A stretch of DNA of 6,307 bases, from NCBI GenBank assembly GCA_027031765.1, contig JALVPN010000044.1, positions 1-6,307 of the forward strand. Reading direction: 5' to 3'. This DNA is from Promethearchaeota archaeon. Its GTDB lineage: Archaea > Asgardarchaeota > Thorarchaeia > Thorarchaeales > Thorarchaeaceae. Below the pieces are notes generated by a model. That model worked only from the letters and a program-made list of their open reading frames with translations. It did no database searches and was not told where the DNA came from. Shown here one piece after another: positions 1-6,307 of the stretch (position 1 is the stretch's first letter; the number at the start of each line of letters is the position of its first letter). The position numbers and the translations under genes are program-made.

Positions 1-530
1 GGCCCCTCGGTCTTCACTGTGACGCCGAAGGTGCTCTCGTACTCCTCCCAGGTCGTCACTTCTCGCTGGAACACGGCCACTGCCATGTCGCAGTCCATCT
101 TGAATGTGGTGCCGTTGACTGCCGGGTTCACTACGATTGCCAGTGCGTCCGCAGCGACTGGTAGTGGCTGGACGTAGGGGTGGTCTTCAAAGTACTCTGC
201 AGGGGGGTACGAGCTCGTTGCCCCGATGTCAATGAGGCCAGCTGCAATCTGTGACTGTCCAAGTCCGGAGCCACCGGTCGTCGGGTTCAGTGCGAAGGCA
301 GGGTAGTCCTCGGAGAAGTGGACCGACCACTCCTGGGACAGCGGGAACACGGTGGACGAACCGGCGGTGCCTATCGTATACAGCACCTGCCTACCTCCAC
401 CAAAGGCCGCCACACCGAGTGCACCGACCATGATACCTATGATGAGAGCGACGCAGGACCTGGAGTTCCATCCTTGCAACTTGGCGTTCACCACTGGGCT
501 GAGACGGGGACTGTCACCATTAAAGGGCAT
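1..530 (-). CDS. pstS: Phosphate ABC transporter substrate-binding protein PstS, 5' part (runs off the left edge)
   Basis: Hand translation of the minus strand shows no stop from 530 to the edge: ...CVALIIGIMVGALGVAAFGGG (TM anchor)...TAGSSTVFPLSQEW...TGGSGLGQSQIAAGLIDIGATSS...PVAADALAIVVNP...TTWEE. GSSTV, GGSGxG, DIGxxS and DALAIVVNP are PstS hallmarks. The start is uncertain: ATG 530 or GTG 494/491. Confidence 0.88.
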   Translation of the reverse strand, partial: MPFNGDSPRLSPVVNAKLQGWNSRSCVALIIGIMVGALGVAAFGGGRQVLYTIGTAGSSTVFPLSQEWSVHFSEDYPAFALNPTTGGSGLGQSQIAAGLIDIGATSSYPPAEYFEDHPYVQPLPVAADALAIVVNPAVNGTTFKMDCDMAVAVFQREVTTWEEYESTFGVTVKTEG

Positions 531-538
531 TCCATATA

Positions 539-571
539 CTTCATATGATGGTAAATGCTGCATGTACAGGC
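539..571 (-). promoter_or_regulatory. Candidate operator/promoter motif upstream of pstS (copy A)
   Basis: Minus strand reads GCCTGTACATGCAGCATTTACCATCATATGAAG. It aligns at 27/35 columns with 691-724 and contains an 11/12 match to the palindrome CTTCATATGAAG (539-550). Confidence 0.5.
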
Positions 572-690
572 GGTGGACGTTCGGGTGCCGGTACTGTTGT
601 GGCACTGGTGTCCGGGGCCAGTGACCGTGGTGCTGCTCTGGATGCCACAGTGGCCACCGGGCGCGTTGTGGCGCGATGGCACTGGTACTG

Positions 691-724
691 GCCCGTACAA
701 TGCATGCAGATGCTTCATATGAAG
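691..724 (+). promoter_or_regulatory. Candidate operator/promoter motif upstream of phoU (copy B)
   Basis: GCCCGTACAATGCATGCAGATGCTTCATATGAAG ends in the perfect 12-bp palindrome CTTCATATGAAG (713-724), 18 nt before ATG 743. Confidence 0.5.
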
Positions 725-742: not shown

Positions 743-1762
743 ATGGACAGTGGCGAGGAGTCGGTGGTGACCCGGAAGCTCAACCGGGTGCGGAACTCTT
801 TCTACATATACTTGCCTAGGCAGTGGTGTCAGGCGTATGGTCTGACAAAGGACTCTCAGGTGCAAATACGTATCACGTCCGAGGGCGACCTTGTTGTGAT
901 GCCACCGTCTGGCGGACGCGTGCGGCCCTCGGCCCTCGACCTGTCGATAGGAGTGAGTGCGAAGAAGGGCCTTGAGAGCCTCCTTATTGGCGCCTACATA
1001 ATTGGGGCCGACCGGCTGGAGCTACGGTTTGACGATGTGCTGGACATGAGCACACGGGAGCGTATCAGCAAGTGGATACGGCGGCTCCCGGGCTACGAGA
1101 TACTTGAAGAGACGAGCACGAGCGTCACGATCAGTGACACGTCAGAGAAGCAGGTGATAATGCCGATACTGCGGCGGCAGTTTGCGACGACCAAGTACAT
1201 GCTGCAGAGCCTTGCAATGGGCCTCCAGTCGGGCGCGGTGCCAGAGAAGTCGAAGATACTGGACAGGGACGAGGATGTTGACCGTCACAGGTACTTTGTG
1301 GAACGGCTGTGCCACCTTGCACTCCGCAACCCGACGTACGCTAGGCGCATTGCCATCTCACCGTCTGACGCCCTCCACTTCAGTCTCGCGGCGAAGTACG
1401 TGGAGCGGATTGCAGACCACATCTGCGGTGCGATCCGGGAGCTCGCAAAGACTGGTGGCATTGACGGTCGTGTTGCTGGCCTGGGTCATGCAATCCTGGA
1501 AGTGTGCGAGGCGACATCACAGACCTTCTTCGGTACTCACAAGGATGGCAGGTCACCGGCCGGCGACCAGTCTGAGGACGCCCTTGCTGCCCACAATGCT
1601 GCGGTACGGCTCGTCAGGCGTCTTGCTAGACTTGGCACCTACCACAAGAAGGCGTCCCGTGAGGACGTAGTACTGCTGCTGCACCTTGAACGGATTGCAT
1701 CGTACTGTGCTGACATTGGCGAGGTGGCAATCAACCGCATTATCCAGGCCCAGCTCGCCTGA
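743..1762 (+). CDS. phoU: Archaeal phosphate uptake regulator (N-terminal AbrB/MazE-type DNA-binding domain + PhoU repeats), 339 aa
   Basis: RKLNRVRNSFYIYLPRQW...GLTKDSQVQI...EGDLVVMP is the AbrB-like domain. PhoU motifs are DEDVDR, KYVERIADH and LERIASY. Start set at ATG 743 after the purine-rich GAGGGGAAGAGG (ATG 719 is an alternative); the ORF-track extension from 545 looks non-coding. The gene is divergent from pstS. Confidence 0.88.
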   Translation: MDSGEESVVTRKLNRVRNSFYIYLPRQWCQAYGLTKDSQVQIRITSEGDLVVMPPSGGRVRPSALDLSIGVSAKKGLESLLIGAYIIGADRLELRFDDVLDMSTRERISKWIRRLPGYEILEETSTSVTISDTSEKQVIMPILRRQFATTKYMLQSLAMGLQSGAVPEKSKILDRDEDVDRHRYFVERLCHLALRNPTYARRIAISPSDALHFSLAAKYVERIADHICGAIRELAKTGGIDGRVAGLGHAILEVCEATSQTFFGTHKDGRSPAGDQSEDALAAHNAAVRLVRRLARLGTYHKKASREDVVLLLHLERIASYCADIGEVAINRIIQAQLA

Positions 1763-1938: not shown

Positions 1939-1951
1939 CTTGACTTGTTCT
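1939..1951 (+). repeat. 13-bp direct repeat, left copy (CTTGACTTGTTCT)
   Basis: Identical to 2696-2708 and 18/21 when extended. It overlaps the MNT stop codon. Confidence 0.7.
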
Positions 1952-2256
1952 AGGCTATTCCCGTCCAGTATTTCTGTGCGTCTCTTATCACGGTGCTTGT
2001 TCTCAGCCGTTCTCTGAGTTCTTCTGGTGTCAGGGGTATCACTTCTATGAAGGGACGTGTCTTCAGCATCCACTCAGACCGATATATCAAGTCCAACCTG
2101 TCCAGGTGTTTCATTCCGTCAAAGTCCTGTGAAACAATGATGAGGTCTATGTCGCTTGTCCTTATCCATGTGCCCTTGGCGTAGCTACCGAATAGGTACA
2201 CTTCCTGTATCTCTTGTCTTGGCCAGCTCTTCTAGCAGCTCAGCCACTGTCCTCAT
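1950..2256 (-). pseudogene. Minimal nucleotidyltransferase (MNT) antitoxin, frameshifted at about 2211-2220
   Basis: ATG 2256 gives MRTVAELLEELAKT and that frame stops at TAG 2187-2185. The catalytic part EIQEVYLFGSYAKGTWIRTSDIDLIIVS (exact GS-X10-DXD) lies in another frame, closed upstream by TAG 2234-2232, whose only standard start is GTG 2201. Confidence 0.75.
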
Positions 2257-2656
2257 CGCTTTCCCCAATGCGGGCTTCGATGTGGTCGACAATTCTCTTG
2301 GCTGTTTCAAAGCATCGTTCACCCTCGATTTGATCTATGGACTCGTGAGGTAGGCCGTTGGCTGCATCAGGGTATCTTGTGACAGTGTAGTACTTGTTGA
2401 ACATGTAGATCTGTTTTTCAAGTCCTTCGGGGAGTACGAACCCTTCCTCCTTCAGAAGCCAGTAGAGTTCTGTTACGGTGTGAATCTTGGGCGGGTCCTC
2501 TCGTCTTACTATGAAAAAGAGCGCTCTGAGCGCTTTCTCAACAGCCTGGTGAGAGAAGAAGGCTGTCCTGAACCACCTATCCCTCTCCAAGGCGTCCCCG
2601 GCGTCTTTGAGGTCCTCCCTTGCCGTAGCCATCCACAGATACACTTCCCTTCTCAA
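2240..2656 (-). CDS. HEPN domain protein (HEPN-T/COG2250-like), partner of the MNT, 138 aa
   Basis: W...AREDL..A...AFFSHQAVEKALRA...PPKIHTVTEL...YTVTRYPD matches the archaeal HEPN-T pattern. TTG start; overlaps the MNT ATG by 17 nt. Confidence 0.88.
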   Translation of the reverse strand: MRREVYLWMATAREDLKDAGDALERDRWFRTAFFSHQAVEKALRALFFIVRREDPPKIHTVTELYWLLKEEGFVLPEGLEKQIYMFNKYYTVTRYPDAANGLPHESIDQIEGERCFETAKRIVDHIEARIGESDEDSG

Positions 2657-2772: not shown

Positions 2773-4392
2773 CTATGAGGTTCCACTCCGGACTGTCAGG
2801 GCCATGCCTGCGAGTTCGCCGACGAGCGCAGTAGAAGATATCGTGTCGCCGAGGCCGACTGTCTGGCCCGGCTGTGCGACCATGATGGTGGGTACGGCAA
2901 CTATGGTGTAGTCCCCGATATGTGCAGTGCCGTCCATCAGGAAGTCGTCCGCTGCGTCAACGGCCCCACGCTGTTCGAGGGCTGTCGCCAGGTCTTGGAA
3001 CTGGGGTGTGGGCAGGCCCCCGGACACCTCCGGTGTGAGCAGGGTGGCCAGCAGCGAAGGGTCGCGGCTGACATCACCGGTATGGGCACGGCTGGCAGCC
3101 TGAAACGCGGCGAAACATAGGGCCTGACGTATGGTCTCTGGCGGTGTCTGGTACCGCTCACGCGCCACGAAGACGATGAAACAGCCCGGTTCATGGAAGT
3201 GGTACCTTGCGATGCCCATCCTCTGACATATCTTCAGCCCTGCCGTGACGACCACGCCCTGGTCAATCGTCCCACCCCTGCCGAGCTCCGAGGCGGCGGT
3301 CTCCTCGTGGAGGGCAGTGAGTATCTGTTTCATCTCCTCCTCGTTGGAGCCGAAGCTGTCCCAGTACGTGTTCTCTCCCGTCGCTCCGGTGGCTGCGGTG
3401 CTGTCGTCCGGGGACGGTCTACCGGGTGCGTCACCTGTCCCGGCACCGGTCGTCCCGTGGCCGGGCGCGGAGAGCCCTAGGAGAGCTGACATGATTTCGG
3501 GCCGGGTGCTGGAGTGTTCGAGGTGTATGATGGGCCGTGGGTGTGCGGAGCGTGCACGTGCCACGAGCCTAAGTGCAGCGGATATCCTCTCGCGGAGTCC
3601 CTGTTCTCCCAGCTTGTCCGTGTCAATGAGGTGGAAGCCGGCGAAGACCATTGCGCCCGCCATCCCTGCAAGCTCTTCGATATGGTCGTTGAAGGCGGGC
3701 ATGATGGAGAGCTGGCCGTTGGGTGGGTCATAGGTGGCAATGAACCTGTTGCTCCTGGGACAGCACCACTCCTCGCCATCGACTGTGATACAGTCGCCCT
3801 TGCTGAATTCTGCAATCATGTGTTGGAAACACTCTTCCGAGGGGTTCACAGCTCCATGGGGGTGTACGAGGCGCAGGGCACCGGTGGTGCTGTCGACTAT
3901 GGGGAGCTTTATCGCCGGCTCATCGTAGAACAGTCCCATCTGTTCGTGTGACCGCGAGTAGCAGTGCACAATGACCTGTGGCACCCCCAGCCGTGCGAGT
4001 GTGTTCGCCATGATGCCAGCCTGCCCACCCATGGCCAGTTCTTGGTCTGGGGGGAGGAGGCGCCGGATCTCGCGGTAGACCTCGGGCCGTGCAATCAACC
4101 ACTCGGCAGCCTTGCCGTCACGGAAACACCCAGACAGGCCCACCAAGAAGTCCGCGGGCGTATCGATGCGTCCCTTCCACTCCTCAACACCACGCCTGAG
4201 CCTGCTCCCGTCGAGCCGCAGGTGCTCCATCAGGGCGCGTATTGCATCCGGGTCGTAGTGTACGATGACGTCCACGTTGGTGTTGAAGCCTACAACGAGT
4301 CCACTGATATGGTCTATGCCTCTCAAGACAGTGTCCGCTGCCTCTTTGTAGCGGTGCTTCCATGTTTCTGCGCTTTCATTCCTCCCGTCCAT
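2773..4392 (-). CDS. glkA: ADP-dependent glucokinase/phosphofructokinase family protein with glucokinase-type signatures, 539 aa
   Basis: Motifs are GFNTNVD, GKAAEW, MGGQAGIMAN, HMIAEF, PRSNRFI, AGFH, HLE and the catalytic TVGLGDTISS. ATG 4392 has GGAGG upstream; GTG 4413 is an alternative. The family call is secure; substrate and symbol are inferred. Confidence 0.9.
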   Translation of the reverse strand: MDGRNESAETWKHRYKEAADTVLRGIDHISGLVVGFNTNVDVIVHYDPDAIRALMEHLRLDGSRLRRGVEEWKGRIDTPADFLVGLSGCFRDGKAAEWLIARPEVYREIRRLLPPDQELAMGGQAGIMANTLARLGVPQVIVHCYSRSHEQMGLFYDEPAIKLPIVDSTTGALRLVHPHGAVNPSEECFQHMIAEFSKGDCITVDGEEWCCPRSNRFIATYDPPNGQLSIMPAFNDHIEELAGMAGAMVFAGFHLIDTDKLGEQGLRERISAALRLVARARSAHPRPIIHLEHSSTRPEIMSALLGLSAPGHGTTGAGTGDAPGRPSPDDSTAATGATGENTYWDSFGSNEEEMKQILTALHEETAASELGRGGTIDQGVVVTAGLKICQRMGIARYHFHEPGCFIVFVARERYQTPPETIRQALCFAAFQAASRAHTGDVSRDPSLLATLLTPEVSGGLPTPQFQDLATALEQRGAVDAADDFLMDGTAHIGDYTIVAVPTIMVAQPGQTVGLGDTISSTALVGELAGMALTVRSGTS

Positions 4393-4536
4393 ATCGACTG
4401 TCTCCTCCCCCACTTAGTACGGGACGTCTGAGAAAAGTCTTCCCGTAATGGTGCGTGTGCACCGTTGTGCCGGGCCCGGACTGACACCGCAACGCAGCTG
4501 GCTGTCGGGCCTTGGGGGCTGGTCACCGGCCCTACG

Positions 4537-5583: not shown

Positions 5584-6307
5584 CTAGGTCGCTACCTTCT
5601 GCAGTATGATGCAGTAGTGGTGGTGCACATTGGACACGTACGTGGTCGGGTAGCCCCAGCAACCCAGCTGCTTGTTGTCCTGGCACCATATCTGTTCCTG
5701 TTGGAGGCGGTACGTATCGGACAGCGCCCTCGCGAGGTCCCACGCCACGGGTCTGAGGGTGCCATCAACATCGCGCACGTTCTGCGCCACGACGGTGAGG
5801 TAGGCCCCGTCTGCCAGGTATGCGCCTGCACATGCAATCGCTGTCGAGACCTCCTCTATGAACCGACCGTAGTCCTCGATGTTGCCCAGGTCGCGGTCGG
5901 ATGTGCTGTAGGTCTGCGGCAGTCCATTGCGTCGCCTCTTCTTGTGGACGGTCTCGTTGCCGCCACGTGACTTGTGGAGCATCGTCCAGTAGGGTGGCGA
6001 GGTGATGAAGTAGTGGAACACCGGGGGCTCGTCAAAGGCCTTGTGGAGGAGCCTGTCCACCTCTATCGCATCGCCTTCGATAAGGAGCTGCGTGCCCGAG
6101 CCACTGGTCTGTGACAGGTGGCGTCTGCCCACTGCCACGAATTCGGGGTTGAGCTCGATGCCGACGGCACTCCTACCGAGGGCACGACAGGCGATGGCTG
6201 TACTGCCGACGCCTGCGAACGGGTCGAGGACCCACTGGCCCGCCCTCGTGAAGAAACGGACGAACCTCGCCACGAGCTGTTCTGGGAACTTTGCTGGGTG
6301 TACGAGC
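5584..6307 (-). CDS. Amino-group (N4-cytosine/N6-adenine) DNA methyltransferase, 5' end outside the window
   Basis: The frame is open to the right edge: LVHPAKFPEQLV...VLDPFAGVGST (motif I)...GIELNPEF...ITSPPYW (motif IV, SPPY typical of N4mC enzymes)...DLGNIEDY...YLTVVAQN...HHYCIILQK. Confidence 0.85.
   Translation of the reverse strand, partial: LVHPAKFPEQLVARFVRFFTRAGQWVLDPFAGVGSTAIACRALGRSAVGIELNPEFVAVGRRHLSQTSGSGTQLLIEGDAIEVDRLLHKAFDEPPVFHYFITSPPYWTMLHKSRGGNETVHKKRRRNGLPQTYSTSDRDLGNIEDYGRFIEEVSTAIACAGAYLADGAYLTVVAQNVRDVDGTLRPVAWDLARALSDTYRLQQEQIWCQDNKQLGCWGYPTTYVSNVHHHYCIILQKVAT

Follow-up and report, generated by a model that had tools for sequence, protein, structure and literature searches.

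Archaeal phosphate responses that run without PhoR and PhoB are largely unsettled. PMC6864096 speaks of an archaeal 'PHO stimulon' of unknown mechanisms and calls the regulation of polyphosphate genes in archaea unknown. Here we consider an intergenic region of an uncultured archaeon in which two phosphate genes diverge from look-alike arms of DNA, and ask whether these arms form a control element, how that element is built and which protein is likely to bind it. The window, that is, the stretch of DNA analysed, is the whole 6,307-bp contig C44 of a metagenome-assembled genome of 2.95 Mb (229 contigs, 59% G+C). As nearly every relative that a search with the regulator protein retrieved bears the name Candidatus Thorarchaeota or Promethearchaeota, and as a true actin (Pfam Actin, E = 2e-133) is encoded in the same genome, we place the host among the Asgard archaea, in the Thorarchaeota family.

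The two genes are the 5′ part of pstS (3–479, minus strand, cut at the contig end), encoding the phosphate-binding protein of the Pst ABC transporter (PF12849 PBP_like_2, E = 4.7e-12), and a gene for a 339-residue AbrB(SpoVT/MazE)–PhoU regulator (743–1762, plus strand), recognized by PF01895 and a weak match to PF04014. Orthologues of pstS are 50–65% identical from about residue 17–27 on, and contig C185 carries the remaining pst operon, with pstA, pstB and a classical phoU. Genes for Pit (PF01384) and a Na/Pi cotransporter (PF02690) were not found in this 95%-complete genome. Within the window, Rfam gave zero matches.

On the 3′ side of the regulator gene lie a nucleotidyltransferase/HEPN pair, an ADP-dependent sugar kinase homologue, a GNAT protein and a partial DNA methylase. 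The pair (1950–2656, minus strand) consists of a minimal nucleotidyltransferase of 83 residues (PF01909) adjacent to a HEPN protein of 138 residues (PF05168) and looks like an MNT–HEPN toxin–antitoxin module that separates the regulator gene, as an insertion, from the genes beyond it. The kinase homologue, of the ADP-dependent phosphofructokinase/glucokinase type (2773–4413, minus strand), has 546 residues, about 90 above the family norm, with its Pfam match split over two stretches. The N6/N4 DNA methylase gene (5584–6273, minus strand) is a recurrent neighbour of pst and abrB–phoU across Thorarchaeota (for example, L076:5266–5991), and in genomes that lack the regulator a DNA methylase gene is directly divergent from pstS (L039 and L040, upstream of pstS).

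Two look-alike arms and their hexamers

A preliminary description of this DNA had pointed to the likeness of the two arms, and that likeness is easily reproduced: in a global alignment, the reverse complement of 539–571 and the segment 691–724 share 27 identities over 35 columns, and the palindrome reported there, CTTCATATGAAG, is perfect in the phoU-side copy (713–724) and one base off in the pstS-side copy. A repeat search returned a perfect 11-nt inverted repeat, ACTTCATATGA, at 538–548 and 715–725. The best inverted local alignment of one half of the 212-nt intergenic region against the other scored 26, against 14.6 ± 2.3 for dinucleotide shuffles of the region. That score was reached by 2 of 2,000 shuffles and by 2 of 2,974 random 212-nt windows of the same genome, which confirms that the arm similarity exceeds chance, about 1 in 1,000 shuffles or genome windows being as good.

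We therefore give hardly any credence to the reading, opposed by that same rarity among shuffles, that the similarity is accidental, and just as little to its companion, that a small mobile element is lodged between the genes, with the arms as its terminal inverted repeats. The perfect 11-nt repeat does enclose a 166-nt GC-rich segment, as such an element might, but the genome holds no other copy of this segment or of its ends as a unit, and relatives with unrelated DNA between the arms have the same words at corresponding positions. A blastn search with 521–760 against the window's own genome gave the self-match only, with no further copy; the intergenic DNA is single-copy, and the arms therefore do not mark the ends of any repeated mobile element. 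The word TCATATGA has 17 copies in the 2.95-Mb genome, two of them in this intergenic region.

Each arm is built from hexamers of the form CATWTR, or YAWATG when the opposite strand is read, three or four of them in a row at intervals of 9–10 bp. The pstS-side array (533–567, minus strand) has four, starting at 533, 542, 552 and 561 with spacings of 9, 10 and 9 bp: on the plus strand they are CATATA (533–538), CATATG (542–547), (G)TAAATG (551–557) and CATGTA(C) (561–567), which in the direction of pstS read TACATG-cag-CATTTAC-cat-CATATG-aag-TATATG. The phoU-side array (695–721, plus strand) has just one perfect unit in this GC-rich genome, CATATG at 716–721, with two degenerate units before it, CAGATG (707–712) at a distance of 9 bp and (GT)ACAATG (695–702) 10 bp further. 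The phoU arm also holds GTACAAT (695–701).

Because orthologous regions share CATWTR words phased at 9 bp, the 12-bp palindrome is read here as one CATATG unit with its preferred AAG spacer and the mirror of that spacer. This changes the architecture first proposed. A 34-bp bipartite unit, GTACA-TGCA-GCA plus the palindrome, gives way to an array of 6-bp CATWTR units with a 9–10-bp period, and its distal GTACA/TGCA part resolves into a run of degenerate units (CATGTAC, CAGATG) that is not kept as such in relatives. What stands of the preliminary description is a cis-element shared by both divergent promoters, which proves to be conserved, phosphate-specific and absent where the regulator gene is absent; what falls is the model of a bipartite site.

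The spacer between the arrays (572–690) is GC-rich and free of boxes. It contains an exact 10-nt direct repeat, TGGCACTGGT, at 600–609 and 677–686 (77 nt apart), and an imperfect 15-nt inverted repeat (615–629 and 680–694, 80% complementary); neither was seen in relatives, whose spacers are unrelated. In the corresponding intergenic region of one genus (g4; L009 and L012, about 1300–1410), two species share a conserved, clearly self-complementary GC-rich block of about 60 nt (ggagcggcg...cgtcgctcc), located between the box arrays, which may encode a small structured RNA or serve as a site for protein binding.

Conservation across Thorarchaeota and rarity elsewhere

The orthologous region was taken from 19 genomes of the same family, in which the regulator is 42–57% identical to that of the window; pstS is divergent from the regulator gene in 17 of the 19. 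These intergenic regions are mostly AT-richer and otherwise unalignable, yet the same short words are prominent in them. In 20 orthologous regions between pstS and abrB–phoU we counted 33 copies of CATATGA, where the flanking DNA predicts 1.1, 28 of CATTTAC (0.46 predicted) and 21 of GCATTTAC (0.11 predicted), and the most widespread 8-mer, CATATGAA, is present in 12 regions (17 copies against 0.4 expected). Spacing is equally marked: 27 pairs of units lie 9 bp apart and 6 pairs 10 bp apart, every other distance up to 40 bp being represented by at most 7. Typical sites in relatives are CATATG-aag-CATTTAC, CATTTAC-ag-CATTTAC and CATATG-nnn-CATATG, with CATTTAC oriented toward the nearer gene on both sides. 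L021, a homologue at greater distance, follows pstB within an operon and yielded no intergenic region for comparison.

A wider sample of 37 orthologous loci from named Thorarchaeota was drawn from a scan of species-representative genomes. Since family genomes are not independent, and this set of related genomes overlaps the species on which the weight matrix described below was trained (this genome having been left out of training), its counts overstate the statistical weight and should be taken as describing a family trait, not independent events: 64 phased pairs fall within the 420 nt upstream of abrB–phoU (4.2 per kb), and the remaining DNA of these loci has 6 (0.033 per kb); 34 of the 37 loci, each roughly 6 kb long, have their best array in that upstream segment; upstream arrays have a median score of 26.6, with 36 of 37 at 19.7 or above, whereas 450-nt windows from other parts of these loci have a median of 4.2 and reach 12.7 at the 95th percentile; and phased hexamers adjoin pstS and the AbrB–PhoU gene in 36 of 37. 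Enrichment at phosphate promoters, which the preliminary description had put forward as a check, is borne out by these figures, as is conservation of the motif in orthologous intergenic regions.

Two of the three exceptions, L060 and L076, have their best array directly behind the regulator gene, about 50 nt before a gene for a Na/Pi-cotransporter–PhoU protein of 538–544 residues that immediately follows it. Both arrays are perfect rows of three CATATG units, reading CATATG-cag-CATATG-tta-CATATG in L076 (3536–3559); that of L060 lies at about 3150–3190. The cotransporter promoter is thus a third phosphate promoter with boxes, and its gene a third member of the proposed regulon in some species. 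At the other extreme, the regulator query gave only a distant paralogue in four family genomes, in which pstS has other neighbours; upstream of pstS there we counted zero phased units, and scores are those of background (−1.7 to 9.3).

One GC-rich relative, G004 (L017/L065), keeps the regulator gene and has no CATWTR units. On its pstS side GTACTAGAC stands twice in tandem with a 9-bp period (L065:2212–2231), and a 91%-complementary inverted partner, GTCGAGTACAA, lies about 22 nt before the regulator ATG (L065:2466–2476). These replacement words, two copies of GTACTAGAC on one side and GAGTACAA on the other, occupy the usual places of the boxes, so that the two-promoter geometry is the same and the word is different. 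The G004 regulator is changed at otherwise near-invariant positions of the N-domain (K12R, N14H and C29V in window numbering), and in this one case operator and regulator may be changing together.

Within this genome, both strands were searched for three-unit arrays with spacings of 8–10 bp, using a 9-column weight matrix built from relatives only. The pstS-side array ranks first of 5.9 million positions (score 26.6; next best 18.8) and the phoU-side array fourth of 5.9 million (17.8). Rank 2 is the TATA-rich promoter of actin, and the remaining top matches lie inside long ORFs. Counting by plain pattern, we found 4 phased pairs in the whole genome, where independent placement of units would give about 2.7, and a single phased triple, which is the pstS-side array at 533; arrays outside the pst locus are mostly inside ORFs. 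The second PBP_like_2 gene of the genome (contig C208), part of a molybdate-type transporter, is without boxes. The actin promoter (contig C97:3430–3470 of G000; L031), a long alternating TATA run, CTATATACGGCATATATATAATG, is a useful example of a generic strong promoter in this genome.

These counts bear on the reading that the boxes are unusual core-promoter elements, variants of TATA or BRE, of two strongly expressed genes without a dedicated regulator. CATTTAC and CATATG are AT-rich and TATA-like, the phoU-side boxes stand at the expected TATA place of a short-leader transcript, and the second-best array of the genome is the TATA-rich actin promoter. The words, however, are repeated two to four times with a fixed 9-bp period in two or three phosphate promoters per genome, are essentially absent elsewhere (4 phased pairs in 2.95 Mb, and the other windows of the 37 loci), and are gone from pstS promoters that lack the regulator gene. 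We hold this reading to be improbable. A generic TATA/BRE element in front of unrelated genes, the alternative that had been set against an operator at the outset, is likewise at odds with 4 phased pairs and 1 triple genome-wide. The TATA-like character of CATTTAC and CATATG nevertheless means that some of the signal may come from the core promoter.

A symmetric triple pattern (YAWWTR-N3 three times over, 41 relatives) was rejected for its degeneracy: TAATTA and CAATTG fit it as well, in AT-rich genomes it was hardly more frequent than the reversed-pattern control, and it missed the 9-10-9 spacing of the window. The stricter pair pattern CATATG-N3-CATWTRY gave about 127 matches against about 31 for the control in 41 family genomes. 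Twenty non-annotated matches to it were fetched, most of them inside long ORFs and four of them pst loci of further species. One other recurrent intergenic site appeared among those fetched, in genus g4 (L106:1505–1610 and L107:1490–1540; genomes G003 and G018, two species): a four-unit cluster, CATATG-cat-CATATG ... CATTTG-ctg-CATATA, in the divergent intergenic region between a gene for a Pyridox_ox_2 flavoprotein and one for an AP_endonuc_2 protein (xylose-isomerase-like TIM barrel), which may be a further target or chance. Triple matches outside the family (G031, G025 and G036) lie inside ORFs or in a simple tandem repeat.

Start codons and promoter geometry

The likely start of pstS is TTG 479, with GTG 494 or 491 as alternatives. 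A Shine-Dalgarno-like GGTGA, read from the sequence (488–492, minus strand), lies 13 nt before TTG 479, and such words peak at −11 to −14 from the start codons of this genome. The start at ATG 530 assumed in the preliminary description is probably wrong: the N terminus that it implies aligns to the nearest GC-rich relative only through a stop codon. Distances from boxes to gene therefore differ from those first assumed. For the regulator the start is ATG 743, with a Shine-Dalgarno-like GAGGGG at 731–736, and GTG 764 or 767 are possible alternatives; orthologues start at about residue 8 of the 743-start protein. A 405-residue ORF from ATG 545 (545–1762) is an artefact of a stop-free GC-rich stretch, and its ATG sits inside a CATATG box. 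An AT-content profile upstream of 934 long ORFs made genes led by Shine-Dalgarno words apparent and contained no TATA peak; a sigma-70 and terminator scan was discarded as inapplicable to an archaeon.

The consensus of 30 Thorarchaeota pstS promoters runs TTTAAA, 6–7 nt, CATATG, AAa, CATTTAC, one or two degenerate units, ATGCC and CCTTAA. In relatives, the distance from the first unit to the pstS ATG is constant at 100–106 nt, and the CTTAA block lies 49–50 nt past the first unit and 51–57 nt before the ATG. The window repeats these promoter blocks in compressed form, in the order CATTTAC (a TATA-like unit), CATATG, TATATG and ATGCC-CTTTAA at 530–520, from which it follows that ATG 530 belongs to a conserved non-coding block. 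That block (520–530, minus strand; toward pstS, ATGCCCTTTAA) is the local copy of the ATGCC...CCTTAA found downstream of the boxes in relatives and, by the 30-promoter consensus, a candidate second TATA box, T2. In the window, a GC-rich (59%) member of the family whose arrays are partly degenerate and compressed, ATGCC-CTTTAA lies 24 nt nearer the boxes than in relatives.

On the phoU side of relatives, CATTTAC-ag-CATATG or CATTTAC-ag-CATTTAC ends 19–21 nt before the ATG (for example, L043 and L046–L048), and in the window 21 nt lie between 721 and ATG 743. With the last unit ending at 19–21 nt, the phoU-side boxes overlap the place at which a TATA box would be expected for a short-leader transcript. 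The geometry of both sides fits an arrangement in which boxes overlap or directly follow a TATA box. If the upstream TTTAAA served as TATA, the units would lie between TATA and the start site, the classic position of an archaeal repressor; with the downstream CCTTAA as TATA, they would instead lie at about −75 to −35, the usual position of an activator.

The AbrB–PhoU fusion and a proposed phosphate regulon

The window regulator matches PhoU (PF01895, E = 8e-9) and, below Pfam's cut-off, PF04014 (E = 8.6e-4); its 19 orthologues all match PF01895, and 14 of them match PF04014 (best 2.4e-6). The AlphaFold model (pLDDT 81) has a β-β-α-β-β N-domain at residues 14–53, an α/β middle domain and a six-helix bundle that Foldseek superposes on the PhoU crystal structures 1t72, 4q25 and 1xwm with TM(target) values of 0.65–0.72. 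A weak profile match to 7d2n was also obtained, and our search turned up no solved structure of an AbrB–PhoU fusion. Proteins of the AbrB/SpoVT/MazE type are DNA-binding dimers of dimers, commonly repressors, that often autoregulate from a divergent promoter or their own. In its N-domain (PF04014 in 14 of 19 orthologues, modelled as β-β-α-β-β) the regulator resembles Bacillus AbrB and SpoVT and the MazE antitoxins; it differs from them in carrying, beyond this domain, an α/β linker domain and the complete six-helix bundle of PhoU, and, unlike the loose AbrB consensus, the candidate operator is a sharply defined phased hexamer. The first 30 or so residues, TRKLNxVRNSFYVYLPRxW, are nearly invariant across the family, in keeping with a conserved DNA target.

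By sequence comparison, the boxes are conserved, are particular to phosphate promoters and very probably form an operator, of which the adjacent AbrB–PhoU is the most probable user. A real phosphate operator could also have another binder, an unlinked regulator or the second AbrB–PhoU paralogue of the genome (C40:177803–178729), with the neighbouring gene only a co-regulated target. The adjacency of the regulator gene is circumstantial, and the paralogue, about 27% identical, has the same domain pair and occurs in every family genome. That ubiquity, however, includes the four genomes whose pstS promoters are without boxes, which argues against the paralogue as binder; in addition, it adjoins unrelated genes, for phosphoglucomutase and ribosomal protein S3Ae, whereas in 36 of 37 loci boxes accompany the adjacent orthologue. 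We rate another binder as unlikely.

We consider it likely that Thorarchaeota have a small phosphate regulon independent of PhoR/PhoB, with the two arms as its operators and AbrB–PhoU as the putative binder. Each operator would be a row of two to four CATWTR hexamers with a 9-bp period, most commonly of the forms CATATG and CATTTAC, one row lying in the promoter of pstS(CAB-phoU) and one in that of the divergent AbrB–PhoU gene. Dimers or higher oligomers of AbrB–PhoU would bind these rows through a swapped-hairpin, AbrB-like N-domain, and the C-terminal PhoU fold would report phosphate status. Under repression, the protein would sit on the core promoters when phosphate is plentiful, shutting off pst and its own gene, and would leave the boxes when phosphate is low. 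Bacterial PhoU acts negatively, most proteins of the AbrB type are repressors and the divergent gene has boxes of its own, and for these reasons we lean, if only somewhat, toward repression over activation.

A more elaborate scheme, which we put forward as speculative and hold to be unlikely, would have AbrB–PhoU act as a one-component sensor that coats hexamers flanked by alternative TATA boxes of the pst promoter, with TTTAAA immediately before the hexamers and CCTTAA some 50 nt after them, and so switches between long- and short-leader transcripts according to phosphate, with boxes co-evolving with the AbrB domain. Such co-evolution is hinted at by G004, in which both the boxes and positions of the N-domain have changed.

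The Thorarchaeota regulon, as we propose it, invites comparison with the bacterial one. In Escherichia coli the Pho box of the PhoB/PhoR system consists of 7-bp direct repeats, CTGTCAT, with 4-bp spacers and an 11-bp period, in place of the −35 element. Both are short repeats of fixed period before pstS and other phosphate-acquisition genes, in a small regulon. The Thorarchaeota core differs in having 6 bp, in being partly palindromic and in its period of 9 bp (27 pairs) or 10 bp (6 pairs). An OmpR/PhoB-type response-regulator domain (PF00486) was not found in this 95%-complete genome, although control genomes matched. The candidate binder here is a one-component AbrB–PhoU fusion, whereas bacterial PhoU acts upstream of a two-component pair.

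The closer parallel is archaeal. Furtwangler et al. (2010, Mol Microbiol 76:378) are said to have dealt with pho boxes in the Halobacterium salinarum pst1 and pst2 promoters. The preliminary description, in stating that no operator of this type was established, overlooked these boxes, which PMC6560208 attributes to PhoU-type regulators and describes as needed for up-regulation; H. salinarum pho boxes are also covered in PMC6267482. Our literature search found nothing on phosphate control in Asgard archaea or on a defined AbrB–PhoU operator, and the single set of archaeal promoter boxes that it yielded is the one from Halobacterium. As in H. salinarum, the window array (533–567) lies upstream of pstS in the promoter of the Pst operon, as it does at the same place in at least 30 relatives, PhoR/PhoB is not involved, and a regulator gene with a PhoU fold (PF01895 and PF04014), divergent from pstS in most relatives, accompanies the boxes, as in a system of the pho-box type. 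The lineage is different, being Asgard, and the box sequence presumably so. Further differences from H. salinarum are that box geometry in Thorarchaeota leans to repression, where the haloarchaeal boxes are described as required for up-regulation, and that the regulator gene itself has boxes before it, as does a Na/Pi-cotransporter gene in some species. The Thorarchaeota boxes are a lineage-specific variant of the archaeal pho-box idea. The boxes are sharply defined throughout the family, keep a fixed 9-bp phase, occur in two or three phosphate promoters and are tied to one neighbouring regulator gene, which makes the question of phosphate control without PhoR and PhoB directly testable in Asgard archaea, and the box itself provides a search pattern for annotating the phosphate regulons of uncultured Thorarchaeota.
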